Assembly (NCBI GenBank): GCA_017461765.1
Contig: JAFTXO010000014.1
Span: 10,926 to 74,925, forward strand
DNA length: 64,000 bases
From: Clostridia bacterium
GTDB lineage: Bacteria > Bacillota > Clostridia > Oscillospirales > CAG-272
Reading direction: 5' to 3'
Shown here piece after piece: positions 8,551 through 44,192 of the stretch (within the stretch, counting starts at the first letter, position 1; each line of letters opens with the position of its first letter). The notes below the pieces were generated by a model. It saw only the letters and a list, made by a program, of their open reading frames with translations, ran no database searches and was not told the origin of the DNA. The position numbers and the translations under genes are program-made.

Positions 8551-8675
8551 CAAAAGCCCGCGTAATTCCGCGGGCTGAACTTTTTAAGGTCTCATCTCTC
8601 GGAATTGGCACCTTGTCTTTCGATAGGTTGCCGTAGCTTCATAGGGCCTGTCCCTCCGCTACTCTTGATAAGAAT
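8551..8675 (-). ncRNA. SAM-I (S-box) riboswitch with expression-platform terminator, in the 5' leader of metK
   Basis: The minus strand reads TTATCAAGAGTAGCGGAGGGACAGGCCCTATGAAGCTACGGCAACC...GGTGCCAATTCCGAGAGA. It is followed by the AGCCCGCG gaatta CGCGGGCT TTTG hairpin at 8555-8576. Confidence 0.9.
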
Positions 8676-9657: not shown

Positions 9658-11385
9658 TTAATCTTTCACTTGTTTCAAATATTTTTCAGCAAGGTAATAC
9701 ATTATTTTGATGTATTGAACAAGCTCGCCCATTTTGCTCTCCTGCAAATATACCTCTTTATATTCAGCAAGCCATTCCTCTACATCCTTGATATTAACTC
9801 CGAATTTTTCGCCGTAAAGCTTGGACATAAGCATAGCAATCATATACTCACTGCCTTTTGCAGTAACCAAAAGAGCTTTTCTTGCTTTTTCATTTTCCCA
9901 AGTTGTTGCCATAAGATACGGGATTGTATCCTCGCAGTCATAGAAGCATCTTGTAAGAACATCGGGATCGGGCTTATATGATGACTTCATAATGCTCTCC
10001 TCGCCGTATTTATCGACACAGTAATAAGCCAAAAGATGCCACCAATATCTATCAAGATGAGCTTTTGATATTTTTTCGTAAAGAGCATACGCTCCATCAT
10101 ATCCGAAATACAAAAGATCGAGCTTTTTACCGAAATCAGAAGTATCGGAGTTTGTATTCCAGCCCTTCTCCGCACCGAACAAGAGTCCGTGCATACACGC
10201 ATACATTGAAGATATATGACCGTGATCTCCCCAGCAGGTCGTCAAAAGTCCCTTAGCACCACATTCAAAACCGCACTGTGCCATCTTTGTAATGTTAGGC
10301 TCTGAAACATGAACAAACTCTATAAGACTGCTCCAGTTTGTAATACCGGGGCAAACATATTGCATTTTTCCCTTTTCTGCAGTATCGTAGATCATTTTAG
10401 TATAAGGATCTGCACTGTATCCCCAGTTTAAGAAAATCGTACTGTCATCTATTTCTTCGATAAATTCGGGGTGTTGATGGATTATATCGCCCCACATCAT
10501 AGCAATCTTTCCAAGGCTTCTTATATGCGCAATTATCTTTTTAACAAAATCAACATAGAGTCTTCCCTTGTCCTTGCCCGCATTTTTTCCTTGGCAAAGA
10601 TCAAATGTTTCGTCACAGCAAATATTGAATTTATTGCTTCTGAAAAGAGGCGCATATTGGTTTATAAGGCTTTTTATAACCTCAATGCTTTCGGGATTTG
10701 TGGGGTCTATGGTGTGATGCCTCATTCTTTCGTTCCAATCAACAGATGTTGGAGTATATTCCTCAAGCTCACAAAGTCTTTTATAATCGGTATATTGCAA
10801 AAGCTCATAAAGATGTCCGAAGCATGAAAGGGACGGTACAAATTCTATAAAGTTCTGATAACAGTATTCATCAAGCTCCTTAATCTCCTCAGGAGTCAAA
10901 TATCCAGTTCTTTGATAAATGCCGTCATATTCCTTAAACGGAAAAACGTGCTCAACATAAAGCTGAAGCATATTTATTTTTGTATATGCAAGATTATCAA
11001 CAAGCTCCTTCAAGGCTTCAAGAGTCGGAATTCTTCCTCTTGTTACATCGTAATAAATTCCGCGTGTTTCAAAATCAGGGCTATCCGATATCTCGCAAAT
11101 GTCGCAATATCCGTTTTTTATAACTTGTCTTAACGTTTGTATAGCATAAAAGACAGCTTGCTGAGATGACGCATTTATAATAACTTCGTGTTCGGAAAGC
11201 TTCATCTTATATTCGCATTTATCAGCCTCAATTACCGAAACTGTTACCTTTGTAGCGCCTTTTTCAACCTTATTTGCAAGATTGACTACTCTTTTGTCAA
11301 TATTGCTTGGAAAATCAAAGGTACAACCTTTGATCTTGAATTTTTCGCATTTTACAGTGCTTTTGAGTTCGGGTATAAAGTACAT
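9658..11385 (-). CDS. Glycoside hydrolase family 20-like protein (putative beta-N-acetylhexosaminidase)
   Basis: RGIYYDVTRGRIPTLEALKELVDNLAYTKINMLQLY TIM-barrel start and a CCDETFD candidate catalytic D-E pair. The family call rests on motif resemblance only. Confidence 0.6.
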   Translation of the reverse strand: MYFIPELKSTVKCEKFKIKGCTFDFPSNIDKRVVNLANKVEKGATKVTVSVIEADKCEYKMKLSEHEVIINASSQQAVFYAIQTLRQVIKNGYCDICEISDSPDFETRGIYYDVTRGRIPTLEALKELVDNLAYTKINMLQLYVEHVFPFKEYDGIYQRTGYLTPEEIKELDEYCYQNFIEFVPSLSCFGHLYELLQYTDYKRLCELEEYTPTSVDWNERMRHHTIDPTNPESIEVIKSLINQYAPLFRSNKFNICCDETFDLCQGKNAGKDKGRLYVDFVKKIIAHIRSLGKIAMMWGDIIHQHPEFIEEIDDSTIFLNWGYSADPYTKMIYDTAEKGKMQYVCPGITNWSSLIEFVHVSEPNITKMAQCGFECGAKGLLTTCWGDHGHISSMYACMHGLLFGAEKGWNTNSDTSDFGKKLDLLYFGYDGAYALYEKISKAHLDRYWWHLLAYYCVDKYGEESIMKSSYKPDPDVLTRCFYDCEDTIPYLMATTWENEKARKALLVTAKGSEYMIAMLMSKLYGEKFGVNIKDVEEWLAEYKEVYLQESKMGELVQYIKIMYYLAEKYLKQVKD

Positions 11386-20899: not shown

Positions 20900-20910
20900 T
20901 GCCTTTTTAT

Positions 20911-20995
20911 GTAGGCGTGGCGGAACTGGTATACGCGTCGGTCTCAGAAGCCGATGGAGCAATCCTTGTGGGTTCAAGTCCCATCGCCTGCACCA
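20911..20995 (+). tRNA. tRNA-Leu (anticodon CAG), class II with long variable arm, CCA encoded
   Basis: Folded by hand. Acceptor GTAGGCG/CGCCTGC, D stem GCG/CGC, anticodon stem TCGGT/GCCGA with loop CT-CAG-AA, variable arm GGA-gcaa-TCC, T arm GTGGG-TTCAAGT-CCCAT, 3' ACCA. Confidence 0.9.
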
Positions 20996-21002
20996 ACAAA
21001 AA

Positions 21003-21036
21003 CAGAACTTTTGTCTACCAAAAGTTCTGTTTTTGT
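21003..21036 (+). terminator. tRNA terminator hairpin. This is copy 1 of the conserved CAACAAA..GAAC..TTTGTCTAC hairpin.
   Basis: CAGAACTTTT gtctacc AAAAGTTCTG followed by TTTTTG. Confidence 0.7.
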
Positions 21037-21047
21037 TTATCCAAGCC

Positions 21048-21170
21048 GCAGGATTGGCATATCATCGCCGCACAACGTGCGGTGTATATCATCAGCCCTT
21101 CGGGCTGTATCTCATCACGCGCCAGCGTGTATTCTCCTGCAGCTTCATGATATGCAATGCTTCGCATTGA
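21048..21170 (+). repeat. Hairpin array 1: four short GC-rich hairpins separated by TAT(A/C)TCATC spacers, the first three enclosed by a GCAGGA/TCCTGC closing stem
   Basis: Hairpins are CCGCAC-aac-GTGCGG (21068-21082), CAGCCC-ttc-GGGCTG (21093-21107), CACGC-gcca-GCGTG (21116-21129) and CAATGC-ttc-GCATTG (21155-21169). Spacers sit at 21058, 21085 and 21108. Confidence 0.6.
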
Positions 21171-21195
21171 TTTATTTGCCAAAGTGTGATATAAT
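21167..21195 (+). promoter_or_regulatory. Sigma-A promoter of cassette 1 (extended -10)
   Basis: TTGATT - 17 nt - TATAAT, with TG one nt upstream of the -10. AAAGGAG RBS at 21203-21209. Confidence 0.6.
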
Positions 21196-21216
21196 ACTGT
21201 TGAAAGGAGTGATTAT

Positions 21217-21564
21217 ATGGCTAAAAACTATTTATTGATATATTCGGAGCAGCTCGCAATCGAGATAGAGCTACTTTGTCAAAAGATAAAAGCACCTTCT
21301 AATACTTTTTTCCAAATCCGTAAGAGTTCAAGTAGCGTTTATGCGAATATTCGTGAAGCCAATTACGGGCAAAGTAAGGCTGATATGCTTTCGAAATTCG
21401 AAATAGCTATCAAAGAGTGCAGCGAAACAGAAGGCTGGTTACAGTTGTTATATAACACAAAAGGTATTGATGAAGAAACATATAAAAACTATAGAAATCT
21501 ATGTGGTCGAATAAGACGAATGTTTATTGCAAGTTGCAGAACTTTGAAGGAGAATGCGAAATGA
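21217..21564 (+). CDS. Four-helix-bundle protein (23S rRNA intervening-sequence protein / Avd-like family)
   Basis: 115 aa. IRKSSSSVYANIREANYGQSKADMLSKFEIAIKECSETEGWLQLL matches the family signature (..s..sI.aNIAEg.gr.s..df..fl.iA.gS..El...l.l). Confidence 0.7.
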   Translation: MAKNYLLIYSEQLAIEIELLCQKIKAPSNTFFQIRKSSSSVYANIREANYGQSKADMLSKFEIAIKECSETEGWLQLLYNTKGIDEETYKNYRNLCGRIRRMFIASCRTLKENAK

Positions 21565-21989
21565 TAGTTTATCATTACACAGACAAATCAAATCTTGACA
21601 ACATAATGAAGAACGGTCTTAAAGCAACCTCAAGATATGAGTCTTTTACTGAACTCAGAAAAAATGTTGTTTTCTGTTGGTTATCTCCATCTGACAATAA
21701 AATATTTTCCGATGATACGATATGCCTTGAAGTAACTGTGAATGAAAATGATTGCATAGTTGCAAGTATGGATTATATAAGCTTTGCTATGATGTATAAA
21801 TACGGGGGAGCAAAGTATGGCGGGATGAACATTCCTATAAACGAGACTGCCTCTGAATTGTTTGTAAAACTATATGATACAACTGCTATCCCTCTGTCTC
21901 AATATAGAAACGGAAATCTATTATCTCCGGAAGTGCTGGTAAAAGGAAGTATTTCTCCGGAAAACATACGAATTTACAATGACAAATAG
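21561..21989 (+). CDS. 142-aa uncharacterised protein with DarT/Tpt1-like ADP-ribosyltransferase-type motifs (hypothesis only)
   Basis: ATGA start/stop overlap with the four-helix-bundle gene. N-terminus VYHYTDKSNLDNIMKNGL (H-x-T), central VVFCWLSP, C-terminus PEVLVKGSISPENIRIY. No search or fold prediction was done. Confidence 0.3.
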   Translation: MIVYHYTDKSNLDNIMKNGLKATSRYESFTELRKNVVFCWLSPSDNKIFSDDTICLEVTVNENDCIVASMDYISFAMMYKYGGAKYGGMNIPINETASELFVKLYDTTAIPLSQYRNGNLLSPEVLVKGSISPENIRIYNDK

Positions 21990-21991
21990 TG

Positions 21992-22101
21992 TATTGACCT
22001 TTTCTTCGCTTTTACCTCGTTTTTTTACCTTTTATCACGTTTAAGGCAACAAAAAAAGAACATTTGTCTACCAAGACAAATGTTCTTTTTTTGAACGATG
22101 T
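21992..22101 (+). repeat. 3' module copy A (pyrimidine-rich box, then CAACAAA..GAAC hairpin/terminator, then TTGAACGATGT)
   Basis: Starts 3 nt after the stop codon of 21561-21989. 39 of the first 45 nt are identical to 23274-23318. The hairpin AGAACATTTGTCT acca AGACAAATGTTCT (22057-22086) is flanked by A7 and T7. Confidence 0.8.
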
Positions 22102-22236
22102 GTTCCGCCACAGCGGAACGTGATGCGTACTTCGTGCGTGAGGATGCGGAACACATCACATCACTTTGCGCCCAAGGCGCAATACATCATTATGGCGAAG
22201 CCATAACATCACTGCGCGGGCGCCGCAACATCACTA
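22097..22236 (+). repeat. Hairpin array 2: GC-rich hairpins separated by ACATCA(C/T) heptamers, plus a 12-nt long-range inverted repeat
   Basis: Heptamers at 22153, 22184, 22206 and 22228. Hairpins at 22166-22182, 22191-22205 and 22213-22227. GATGTGTTCCGC (22097-22108) is the exact reverse complement of GCGGAACACATC (22146-22157). Confidence 0.6.
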
Positions 22237-22265
22237 TTTACAAACTACTAAAATTATGCTATAAT
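22237..22265 (+). promoter_or_regulatory. Sigma-A promoter of cassette 2 (extended -10)
   Basis: TTTACA - 17 nt - TATAAT, with TGc immediately upstream of the -10. Confidence 0.6.
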
Positions 22266-22289
22266 AAAATCCGGAAAGGCGGTGAACTC

Positions 22290-23273
22290 GTGGAAGAAAA
22301 CAACTTAAAGCATATTGAAGGAAAAAAGATACGCCGACAGTATTTTAATATTCCTCTGATTATTCTATATTCATTGATGCTTGCAATCCCCTATGCTATT
22401 TTTACGATTTCGTTATGCATAGGAAAGTCTGATTCTTACGAGTGGTCATCTACGCTTTGGACATCAATATGGATTTGCTTTTTCTTTTCATTACCCCTAC
22501 TTGTTCTCAGCACATTAAACAAACATTGCTTTGGAAGAATTCTTTGTGTTCTTAATAAAGAAGGGATACATTTTTCGAATAAAGGAAAGCTTCGTTGGGA
22601 AGTAATTGAAAAAATTGAATATGTCATAGATTCAAAACCAAGATACAAAAGCGATACAAAAAAAGCATTCAGAGCAATTATCTATACACAAGGCGGTAAG
22701 CATATTGTTCTCGCCAATGTGCCTCTTTATATTGTATCACGCATAAAGAAATATCAAAAAGGGCTTGAGATCAAAATTTTAGGTATAACATCATTGTTGC
22801 CCGTTACGTTGGTTATGGTGGCAATACTACTTCTGTGTCCTTTTTATGTGGTGCTGCTTCGAAATGCACCCGGCGCTTCAGTCGCTCATTTTATTGTTTT
22901 GGCGATTATTTGGCTTATCTTTGGAATTATTCGTACGCCTATATTTGATATGTATGACATACGGTATCGGTTTTGGAGCAAGGTTTTACCAAAGAAATGG
23001 CTATCATACATGATACTCGGGTGTTATTATTCATCATTTTTTGTAGTTCTCCTTATTTTGTTTTATCTTCCCAATTGGGTTGTGGTTTCTATTCTTGGTG
23101 TATATCTGGGCATAGTACAACCGCCTATGCCTTCCAAATATGGTAGCAGTCGTTTCAACTACATACTGTCATATGATAAGTTGTGGGAGATCTATATTAA
23201 TAAAGCAGATTTTTGGGAAGATCATATAGCGAAGAACAAGAAAAAAAGGGCTGAGAAAAAGAGTAAGAAATAA
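22290..23273 (+). CDS. Polytopic membrane protein with an internal bacterial PH-like segment and a Lys-rich tail; function unknown
   Basis: GTG start at 22290, 7 nt after a GGCGGTG/AAAGG RBS. The ORF-track N-terminal extension (22098-22289) covers the hairpin array and the promoter and is not coding. Two TM helices, then VLNKEGIHFSNKGKLRWEVIEKIEYVI, then about four more TM helices. Confidence 0.6.
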   Translation: MEENNLKHIEGKKIRRQYFNIPLIILYSLMLAIPYAIFTISLCIGKSDSYEWSSTLWTSIWICFFFSLPLLVLSTLNKHCFGRILCVLNKEGIHFSNKGKLRWEVIEKIEYVIDSKPRYKSDTKKAFRAIIYTQGGKHIVLANVPLYIVSRIKKYQKGLEIKILGITSLLPVTLVMVAILLLCPFYVVLLRNAPGASVAHFIVLAIIWLIFGIIRTPIFDMYDIRYRFWSKVLPKKWLSYMILGCYYSSFFVVLLILFYLPNWVVVSILGVYLGIVQPPMPSKYGSSRFNYILSYDKLWEIYINKADFWEDHIAKNKKKRAEKKSKK

Positions 23274-23381
23274 TATTGACCATTTCTTTACTTTTACCTC
23301 GAATTTTTACCTTTTAACCGCAATATTACAACAAAGAACGCACTTTTGTCTACTGACAAAGGTGCGTTTTTTGAATGATGT
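23274..23381 (+). repeat. 3' module copy B
   Basis: Starts directly after the TAA of 22290-23273. Same pyrimidine-rich box. The hairpin ACGCACTTTTGTC tact GACAAAGGTGCGT (23338-23367) is followed by T6 and then TTGAATGATGT. Confidence 0.8.
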
Positions 23382-23556
23382 TTAGCTCTCTCGCCCTAAA
23401 AATCTTTTAGGATTTTCAAGAACCCTGAGGTACGGCTGATGTTCGCTTTGCGAAGAAGATACGGTTATGAAAGACAACAAGTTTGTCGAGCTCTCGATGA
23501 ACTTTTCTGTTGATATCATAATCCCGTTAAATTCTTGAAAACAAATCACTAAACGA

Positions 23557-44065: not shown

Positions 44066-44180
44066 CTAAAAAAATAAATGGACAGAACTACCCTACTGCG
44101 GTAGAACTGCCCAGACGGTCGACATCGAAGGAAATTTGCTCCCTTGCGGTGTTCCCGCCATCCGTCAGTTGCAAAAACCT
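44066..44180 (-). ncRNA. ZTP (pfl motif) riboswitch with terminator, leader of the pur operon
   Basis: The minus strand reads CAACTGACGGATGGCGGGAACACCGCAAGGGAGC ... GTCGACCGTCTGGGCAG. GACGG and CCGTC can form the pseudoknot, and CCGTCTGGGCA resembles the conserved 3' CCGCCUGGGCA. The overlapping terminator is GGGCAGTTCTACC gcagta GGTAGTTCTGTCC plus a T-run (44066-44113). Confidence 0.7.
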
Positions 44181-44192
44181 TTACCGATATCA

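Follow-up and report, generated by a model that had tools for sequence, protein, structure and literature searches.

Gut-1 (Rfam RF01706) is an orphan motif of human-gut metagenomes that was rated by its discoverers as a likely RNA (Weinberg et al. 2010, PMC2864571). The searchable literature on Gut-1 goes no further than that paper, records only the occurrence of the motif in human-gut metagenomes, and gives no context, partner or function. Here we describe a family of elements of related architecture, starting from one copy in the genome of a Clostridia bacterium (GenBank assembly GCA_017461765.1); the copy lies in a window of 64,000 nucleotides (contig JAFTXO010000014.1, positions 10,926 to 74,925), and all positions given below without a contig name are those of the window. 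A GC-rich block at 21037-21175, between a tRNA-Leu gene and a gene of family PF05635 (23S rRNA intervening-sequence protein [IVP], an Avd-like four-helix bundle), is a degenerate member of a mobile family of two-armed arrays in which short words alternate with small hairpins. The array and a bidirectional terminator of its own make up the 5' head of small gene cassettes; in uncultured gut Clostridia these lie inserted right past the 3' CCA of tRNA genes. The hairpins of the array are kept by selection on pairing, as is a long-range helix that encloses the left arm, and the selection on the hairpins is strand-specific and opposite between the two arms.

The array family is in the same architectural superfamily as Gut-1. 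Both have three short GC-rich hairpins with a repeated short word between them (GUGAAAU in Gut-1), both come from uncultured gut bacteria only, and the true Gut-1 matches in this genome are two-armed and lie past tRNA genes with the same type of terminator. The word itself is different, being TATATCATC or its reverse complement GATGATATA in the window copy (YATMTCATC between hairpins); we use 'dialect' for such a word variant. Rfam models a single arm of Gut-1, as a small RNA, and here the two arms stand in reverse order as seen from the terminator, the terminator-side arm having the CATC-type word and GNA loops. This arm order is also opposite to that of 18 of the 19 arrayed IVP loci of other dialects. 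The RF01706 model finds no match in 20900-22400 even at E <= 10 (the miRNA and snoRNA matches there are terminator or noise), and on the opposite strand two sister copies reach 25.1 and 22.3 bits (cut-off 50), compared with 50-65 bits for the true Gut-1 matches in the genome.

Other described elements share single traits with the arrays. The repetitive extragenic palindromes (REP) of Proteobacteria, with the bacterial interspersed mosaic elements (BIME) and the REP doublets (REPIN) built from them, are dispersed intergenic palindromes past terminators, occurring in inverted pairs, for which action at the DNA level and mobilisation in trans have been proposed; REP stems are conserved and have the REP-associated tyrosine transposase (RAYT) as partner, whereas the arrays have hypervariable stems and conserved linkers, in a genome with no Y1 transposase. 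Integrons have one structured attC site per cassette, variable in sequence and conserved in structure, which acts as a folded single strand and is strand-selective, and they stack unrelated accessory genes. The arrays resemble attC, on the polarity and cassette data given below, as putative strand-selective folded sites that head stacked accessory-gene cassettes, but they show no R and L boxes, no GTTRRRY core and no IntI-type integrase within 3.5 kb on either side of 160 copies; each array cassette has its own terminator and promoter, and the platform is the tRNA 3' end rather than attI. Iteron and centromere arrays (parC-parR of R1, sopC of F) are phased repeats in two sets at the promoter of the presumed binder's gene and are read as duplex; they lack interspersed strand-polar hairpins, and in the arrays the IVP is only presumed to bind the words. 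Hairpins of the form C-GNA-G and C-GNNA-G belong to the classic d(GCGAAGC) class of very stable DNA mini-hairpins, known mainly singly, for example at origins of single-stranded DNA (ssDNA) phages; we know of no phased arrays of them with conserved linkers. On the word-sense strand these two forms are the dominant type of array loop, and the right-arm hairpin of the window copy reads GCGAAGC on the minus strand. In the 23S rRNA intervening sequences, a PF05635 protein is encoded in or next to a structured insertion in rRNA helices that RNase III excises from the RNA, whereas the array element lies past tRNA genes, outside the mature RNA. A CRISPR array was rejected, since repeats of 9 nt alternate with palindromic 'spacers' of 8-32 nt and the neighbours include no cas genes.

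The sequence-only reading from which this analysis started had proposed a genome-wide search for the unit of spacer and hairpin. Five copies are present in the genome itself: that of the window, three more on contig C16 recovered by DNA search, and one on contig C36 recovered by a scan for word clusters. A pattern taken from the common left end, TTATCCA N9-14 TGGYATATCATC, matches exactly these five copies in its own genome; it is present in 37 of the 201 genomes sampled from this bacterial family, spread over 25 of 97 genera, and the reversed control pattern is found in none. At least 120 contigs of GTDB species representatives carry the pattern, and among the GTDB matches listed nearly all are metagenome-assembled genomes (MAGs) of human and ruminant guts that bear the label Acutalibacteraceae, Oscillospiraceae, Eubacteriales or Clostridia, and a few are chance matches. 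The strict pattern has a small chance background, to which 8 of 11 matches in IMG/VR and a few of those in GTDB belong. For the family analyses 160 distinct copies were collected, and the genomes behind the family counts are mostly MAGs.

The canonical unit has two arms. On the left, the tRNA CCA is followed by an A-run, the terminator hairpin, a T-run, ATCCA with a first hairpin that we call hp0, three units of YATMTCATC plus a hairpin, and a short spacer. On the right, a 'closure' that is the reverse complement of the 5' arm and loop of hp0 is followed by three units of GATGATATA plus a hairpin, by GATT and often by a promoter. Several types of hp0 occur (CCAAGCC-GCA-GGCTTGG, CCATTGC-GAAA-GCAATGG and variants), and hp0 and closure together make an 11-nt inverted repeat that brackets the left arm; complementarity of the hp0 5' half with the central closure is also seen in other dialects. 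The commonest architecture, with three left and three right words (LLLRRR), accounts for 45 copies. The number of words per copy ranges from 1 to 7, and one copy (L021) shows tandem amplification of the unit.

The words are near-invariant while the hairpins between them are hypervariable, with 292 unique sequences in 497 slots. Among 246 unique inter-word segments, 72% have at least four perfect Watson-Crick pairs counted from their ends, compared with 0.75% after shuffling. A comparative alignment for compensatory changes, also suggested by the earlier reading, was made with MAFFT from 96 copies, and in it the stems are indeed kept through compensatory change: RNAalifold recovers hp0, hairpin 1 and hairpin 2, each with many such changes. 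Taking the closing helix with hairpins 1 and 2, 97.6% of the alignment cells are paired, against 72.5% when columns are shuffled and 25-40% in slid registers, and 356 cells are changed on both sides against 131 after shuffling, a figure reached in none of 500 shuffles; these cells are not independent evolutionary events. In the closing helix taken alone the paired share is again 97.6%, and switches are seen at three positions: AU/UA, GC/UA/AU and CG/GC/UA. Without recourse to an alignment, hp0 and the closure of the same copy show a perfect complement of at least 9 nt in 95 of 133 copies, compared with 2% when hp0 is set against closures of other types, of which there are at least six. The local hp0 hairpin covaries as well (AU/UA, GC/UA and CG/GC), so the 5' arm of hp0 can pair either way. 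A rod of RNA or ssDNA built by pairing left words with right words, which RNAalifold offers in the form of word 3 with the first word of the right arm, was rejected as a selected structure: the pairs are invariant, and the single position that varies has a C.T mismatch in 43 of the 96 copies and C-G in one.

Each well-formed hairpin was oriented to the strand on which the neighbouring word reads TATATCAT (n = 223 unique). On this word-sense strand the loop is G..A in 105 hairpins and T..C in five, the G..A loops being GAA (37), GTA (13), GCA (9) and GGA (8), together with GCAA, GTAA, GAAA and other GNNA loops, and the closing pair is 5'-C/G-3' in 188 of the 223. Split by arm, the ratio of G..A to T..C is 36:5 (left) and 69:0 (right), and the preferred strand is therefore plus in the left arm and minus in the right. 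Wobble pairs are rare, at about 2% of stem pairs, and are also unevenly distributed: on the plus strand G.T versus A.C is 16:7 in left-arm stems and 4:10 in right-arm stems, and in the alignment cells of hp0, hairpin 1 and hairpin 2 it is 31:6. Reverse complementation does not turn the right-arm hairpins into the left-arm ones, so this polarity is no by-product of a recent inverted duplication, and since the loops are free to vary inside the G..A constraint, selection is indicated. Because both loop and wobble polarity flip between the arms, a single transcript would hold one favoured and one complementary arm; nor would loop polarity be expected of a simple palindrome in duplex form or of a cruciform with two equal sides. 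Most simply, then, the arms are recognised as folded single strands, one on each of the two opposite strands, and this favours ssDNA over one RNA.

The location of the arrays is as regular as their structure. In 79 of the 146 copies with enough upstream sequence (54%), the array lies 27-44 nt, the length of one terminator, past a tRNA gene on the same strand, and 25 anticodons are represented. The terminator moves with the array, one type (…GAACTTTTGTCTACCAAAAGTTC…, GTCTAC core) being found past different tRNAs in other genomes with compensatory changes in its stem, and relatives of the same genus that have no array have unrelated terminators past tRNA-Leu(CAG). The complete head of terminator, array, promoter and IVP gene was found past 10 identified tRNA species in different genomes. 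Plus-strand promoter-like sites are present within 140 nt downstream of 43 of 112 arrays, compared with 13 of 112 on the minus strand and 10 of 88 control stretches.

Movement of the element is evident at contig C36. The copy there and one in another species of the genus are about 97% identical over about 300 bp (terminator, array and a 110-nt tail), whereas identity drops to about 80% in the adjacent tRNA genes and the flanks cannot be aligned; in this pair the left arm has been exchanged together with hp0 and the closure. The synteny downstream of the window's tRNA-Leu(CAG), with an ABC-ATPase gene, is not conserved in the genus, and the comparison with an empty site was therefore made at C36. 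In the nearest relative, whose tRNA-Leu(GAG) is 100% identical, the tRNA gene is followed by its own terminator and hpt; in the occupied site 1,370 bp are inserted directly past the CCA, and a terminator and hpt come after them. The insertion consists of terminator, array, tail, promoter, a gene for a 238-aa passenger protein and a 3' module that ends in ...GATTACTCACAAC, which is like a tRNA 3' end.

Several routes of movement were considered and set aside. The classic model of a tRNA integrase that duplicates the 3' half of the tRNA is suggestive at most: identity between copies at different tRNAs starts only past the CCA, and the far ends of cassettes show only degenerate tRNA-3'-like sequence (...ACTCACAAC, ...GGCAAC, ...TACAAC). 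Recombination inside the terminator loops would leave mismatched chimeric stems, and gets no support here, the three terminators of the window being perfect or near-perfect hairpins with different stems. Mobility of the RAYT type, or of a retroelement type, was rejected because the genome (81% complete) has neither a Y1 transposase (RAYT or IS200, PF01797) nor, despite its six PF05635 genes, a match to the reverse transcriptase family PF00078; the latter also removes a diversity-generating retroelement, with its Avd protein, reverse transcriptase, template repeat and variable repeat, from the candidates. A phage origin was dismissed, as no DNA match was found in 50,697 phage records. Three of the 11 IMG/VR pattern matches are real arrays (two distinct sequences), all at contig ends by tRNA-type flanks, two of them with a visible tRNA 3' end; the other eight are chance matches in coding DNA.

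Open reading frames within 3.5 kb on either side of the 160 copies were clustered, and the IVP is the only real recurrent family among them, with 22 loci, always on the plus strand and with a median start 203 nt past the array start. No integrase, transposase or other recombinase recurs within that distance, and the other downstream genes are very diverse small accessory genes. The association is tighter when viewed from the gene. Each of the six PF05635 genes of this genome lies just downstream of a word array; five of these arrays have hairpins and the sixth has none, and the word differs each time. Of 20 IVP genes drawn at random from other genomes of the family (<=52% identity), 19 are directly preceded by a word-and-hairpin array, and at least 12 of these also lie past a tRNA gene and terminator. 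IVPs at least 76% identical to that of the window occur in 14 genomes of the family sample, all of them array-positive, and at least 13 of the 16 genes concerned adjoin a TATATCATC array; in 13 genomes besides this one, homologues at that level of identity are neighbours of an array of the same dialect. No link of PF05635 to such arrays was found in the searchable literature. The array without hairpins is at C12:20330-20420, where a set of CTTCACTTTTCAC repeats and an inverted GTGAATAGTGAAAAG set lie upstream of another IVP gene; hairpins are thus not obligatory for every IVP-linked array.

The window copy is a worn version of the canonical unit. The element begins right past the CCA end of the tRNA-Leu(CAG) gene (20911-20995, plus strand; identified by ARAGORN and Rfam) with a bidirectional intrinsic terminator that is part of it (20996-21036), made of an A-run, a perfect 16-bp stem (20998-21013 with 21019-21034) around the loop TCTAC, and a T-run. 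On the plus strand there follow the left terminus of the array, TTATCCA (21037-21043), which is the same in 96 of 96 aligned copies and is also the anchor of the search pattern; hp0 (21041-21057), in the degenerate form CCAAGCC-GCA-GGATTGG; word 1, CATATCATC (21058-21066), recognised from sequence and alignment; hairpin 1 (21066-21084), which folds as C-G-CCGCAC AAC GTGCGG-T-G with one G.T pair; word 2, TATATCATC (21085-21093); hairpin 2 (21093-21107), CAGCCC TTC GGGCTG; word 3, TATCTCATC (21108-21116), found like word 2 by the word-pattern scan; and hairpin 3 (21116-21129), CACGC GCCA GCGTG, assigned like hairpin 2 by folding. Past TATTC comes the closure, TCCTGCAGCTT (21135-21145), the inverted copy of the hp0 5' arm and loop, which covaries with the type of hp0 across copies. 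The right arm is truncated, and opens with the inverted word CATGATATG (21146-21154; sequence and alignment), a degenerate GATGATATA, followed by its sole remaining hairpin (21155-21169), CAATGC TTC GCATTG, where canonical copies have three, and by ATTTATTTGCC. The second, inverted arm with the reverse-complement word is thus represented in the window by a single unit (21146-21169). Wear is also seen as a C-to-A change that disables the 3' arm of hp0 (GGATTGG for GGCTTGG) and a G-to-A change in the closure. The word pattern has six occurrences in the window against 1.6 expected, and on either strand, with RNA and with DNA parameters alike, the block folds with z = -3.4 to -3.7, none of 200 shuffles being as good.

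The sequence-only reading had listed here a GC-rich block of three hairpins, each behind a word, with the words at 23-27-nt spacing, and all of these features are where it placed them; the word starts at 21058, 21085 and 21108 give spacings of 27 and 23 nt. It had also put the block past a terminator and ahead of a promoter, which agrees with the perfect bidirectional terminator upstream and with a TG-extended cassette promoter, TTGATT-17-TATAAT, at 21167-21195 on the plus strand. Its closing stem, GCAGGA (21048-21053) with TCCTGC (21135-21140), is present as part of a longer helix of AAGCCGCAGGA (21043-21053) with TCCTGCAGCTT (21135-21145) that encloses the left arm and has 10 of 11 pairs and one C.A mismatch; what the reading had missed is that the left strand doubles as the 5' arm and loop of the conserved local hairpin hp0 (canonically CCAAGCC-GCA-GGCTTGG). 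The fourth hairpin it described does overlap the -35 hexamer TTGATT (21167-21172), which is made of the end of this hairpin and the conserved ATT, as in a subset of the other copies; it is the one unit left of the inverted right arm and stands behind CATGATATG.

The first cassette gene is the IVP gene (21217-21564, plus strand; Pfam E = 5e-18). A gene for a 143-aa protein (21558-21989) overlaps its stop; it has no Pfam match and no homologue among the related cassettes, relatives have other genes or none at this place, and it is a locus-specific passenger. Further downstream, the modules 21994-22093 and 23265-23373 are homologous cassette ends (...CAAC plus terminator), each followed by an array of another dialect. 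Their parts 21994-22049 and 23265-23331 are runs of T-rich decamers (…TTGACC…CTTTTACCTCG…TTTTTACCTTTTA…) that end in …CAAC before the terminator and recur in cassette arrays of other genomes (L022, L027, L041 and L042); the …CAAC end is like a tRNA 3' end with 2 nt added (CACCAAC). The first of the two arrays (22097-22240) lies between a perfect 20-bp terminator (22050-22093) and a promoter, TTTACA-17-TATAAT (22237-22265). In it GATGTGTTCCGC (22097-22108) pairs perfectly with GCGGAACACATC (22146-22157), the hairpins are TTTGCGCC-CAA-GGCGCAA, TATGGC-GAA-GCCATA and one that is GC-rich, and the words between them are ACATCAC and ACATCAT; it has the majority arm order, with GNA loops on the plus strand of the right arm. 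With an array and promoter at 22097-22265, the 391-aa open reading frame called from 22098 probably starts later. Past the third terminator (23332-23373), AATGATGTTTAGCTC at 23374-23400 looks like the decayed start of a third array, of AATGATG dialect.

Composite arrangements occur elsewhere in the genome. At C19:34300-34720 (minus strand), a complete two-armed array of Gut-1 dialect lies past tRNA-Tyr, and behind it stand the final two hairpin-and-word pairs of a TATATCATC-dialect right arm and then the promoter belonging to it. This chimera suggests that newer arrays may be inserted or exchanged on the terminator-proximal side of older ones. On C16 (1-11000, L005) three TATATCATC-dialect copies lie within 10 kb around tRNA-Ser and tRNA-Arg genes and a block with genes for a Rep-like protein and a truncated large serine recombinase; ahead of the copy at 10345-10470 the tRNA-Ser terminator recurs in near-identical form, inverted relative to the real one. 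Past tRNA-Leu(GAG) in relatives of the genus (L207-L221) there is a different mini-element of about 190 nt, sometimes in tandem, which starts with the tRNA T-arm in inverted copy (GGGACTTGAAC…), has a hairpin whose loop is TTCGGGGAA, and has as its end a direct repeat of the tRNA 3' end and terminator (AGTCCCGTTTCTCGCACCA…); these look like a separate family that duplicates the tRNA 3' end. Ordinary SAM-I (8589-8674) and ZTP (44102-44182) riboswitches are also present in the window, both on the minus strand and both matches at the Rfam gathering threshold.

We tentatively read the array as a cis-acting site that is recognised as folded single-stranded nucleic acid, most likely DNA, with the words as contacts and the IVP as the likeliest reader, affecting the promoter, mobility or both; drawn from sequence comparison, this is the account to which we lean, at somewhat less than even confidence. 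Array DNA would be exposed as a single strand by replication, by transcription or by extrusion driven by supercoiling. The 9-nt words would then serve as sequence-specific contacts and the C-GNA-G hairpins as rigid, nuclease-resistant spacers between them, and the likeliest reader would be a multimer of the IVP encoded alongside. Avd, a relative of the IVP, is a pentamer. The adjacent cassette promoter has a -35 built from the last hairpin, and its activity or its insulation would be set by IVP binding. The array might in addition tag the cassette for a host enzyme, encoded at another locus, that moves it; copies with no IVP would be solo sites acting in trans, or relics. The sequence-only reading had left the choice between a DNA-level role, perhaps as ssDNA, and an antisense RNA. 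What it had named as refuting is contradicted, since the block has other copies and its stems are kept by compensatory change. The DNA branch is favoured, though not proven, on the flip of polarity, for which a single transcript cannot account, the class of GNA loops, the behaviour as mobile DNA and the enrichment of promoter-like sites on the plus strand only, and the last of these leaves a dedicated antisense promoter unsupported.

A number of observations weigh against an account built on the IVP and on DNA. Of the 37 array-positive genomes, 23 have no IVP at least 76% identical to that of the window and only 14 carry one, and an IVP gene adjoins only about 16% of arrays of this dialect, so a strict model in which each array needs its own IVP fails. 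Nor is there a strict code of one protein for one word: a near-identical word (GATGATATA) is found, with the arm order swapped, beside IVPs that are only 46-50% identical, and this, with the array-positive genomes that have no cognate IVP, led us to reject such a code. An IVP of 63% identity uses another word, TATGGCATC. No recombinase is linked to the arrays within 3.5 kb on either side, and the GNA-loop preference counts as evidence for DNA on the strength of what is known of d(GCGAAGC)-type hairpins. Finally, in six of 20 loci of other dialects the ribosome-binding site of the IVP gene abuts the array, which is thus part of the mRNA there and may have a role at the RNA level.

A rival reading takes the array as a structured non-coding RNA or RNA leader, made by read-through from the tRNA or an upstream operon, or from the minus strand up to the terminator. 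The hairpins would form a ladder whose single-stranded words bind a protein such as the IVP, the whole acting as a sponge, an autoregulatory leader or a stabiliser. We regard it as unlikely, if still a serious contender. The covariation is strong, the upstream terminator is bidirectional, and in two of the six loci of other dialects where the array abuts the ribosome-binding site it follows a coding gene with no clear intrinsic terminator and must be transcribed; the architecture is moreover that of Gut-1, itself rated a likely RNA (PMC2864571). One RNA would hardly be expected, however, to have loop polarity and wobble bias that flip between its arms, G.U-type pairs are rare, and C-GNA-G triloops outnumber the classic RNA tetraloops. 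The word-to-word pairing that would join the arms into a rod is unsupported, given its C.T mismatch in 43 of 96 copies, and the Rfam model of Gut-1 fails to detect the window copy. In the dialect of the window, besides, a strong terminator stands before the array and a promoter after it, and promoter-like sites on the minus strand are not enriched.

Alternatively, the array may be a selfish non-autonomous repeat of REP/BIME or miniature inverted-repeat transposable element (MITE) type that has no function for host or cassette and is copied by an enzyme in trans to terminator-proximal sites. Its hairpins and words would persist only through recognition by that enzyme; IVP and passenger genes would then be neighbours only through co-accumulation in permissive islands next to tRNA genes. 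Such a repeat would account for the dispersal of the copies, for their variable copy and unit number, from 1 to 7 words with the tandem amplification in L021, for the truncated and chimeric copies, for the 84% of copies with no IVP together with the many array-positive genomes that have no cognate one, and for an intergenic location past terminators like that of REP and BIME. Comparison with MITEs brings out weak inverted termini at the two ends (ATCCA...TGGGAT) besides the hp0/closure repeat, but no consistent target-site duplication. The stems vary, unlike those of REPs, the genome offers neither a Y1 transposase nor a reverse transcriptase as the enzyme, and no transposase recurs near the 160 copies. 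An array stands upstream of 25 of the 26 IVP genes examined, which co-accumulation alone can hardly explain, and we consider this alternative unlikely, slightly more so than the RNA reading. A chance cluster of terminator-like palindromes with no common origin is next to impossible, for although short GC hairpins are frequent in intergenic DNA, more than 150 homologous copies with invariant words and covarying stems, far from all shuffled controls, refute it.

The reading of the array as a folded single-stranded site can be carried further. Arrays and PF05635 proteins together may constitute an as yet unrecognised system in gut Clostridia by which cassettes of accessory genes, equipped with promoters, are stacked at tRNA 3' ends, with the array and its terminator hairpin as a folded ssDNA attachment or recognition site analogous in function to attC. 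A four-helix-bundle multimer would read the array strand-specifically and recruit a recombination or replication activity of the host encoded elsewhere. We see this as a long shot on present sequence evidence, and mention it for its consequences.

The arrays provide testable constraints in the strand-polar loop code, the covarying long-range helix, the position past tRNAs of 25 anticodons and the pair of occupied and empty sites; the loop code, in particular, points to folded single strands rather than to one RNA or to plain duplex DNA. Gut-1 has been an orphan Rfam motif since 2010, and the present locus and its relatives tie it to PF05635, a very widespread family that to our knowledge has no known role outside diversity-generating retroelements. 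Were the cassette-system reading true, it would give a function both to orphan Gut-1 and to the '23S rRNA intervening-sequence protein' family. If the arrays are protein-binding ladders of RNA or DNA, they would represent a new sequence-coded system of protein-nucleic acid recognition; if they are sites of cassette capture or control, integron-like shuffling of accessory genes would be taking place in gut Firmicutes, invisible to present annotation pipelines.

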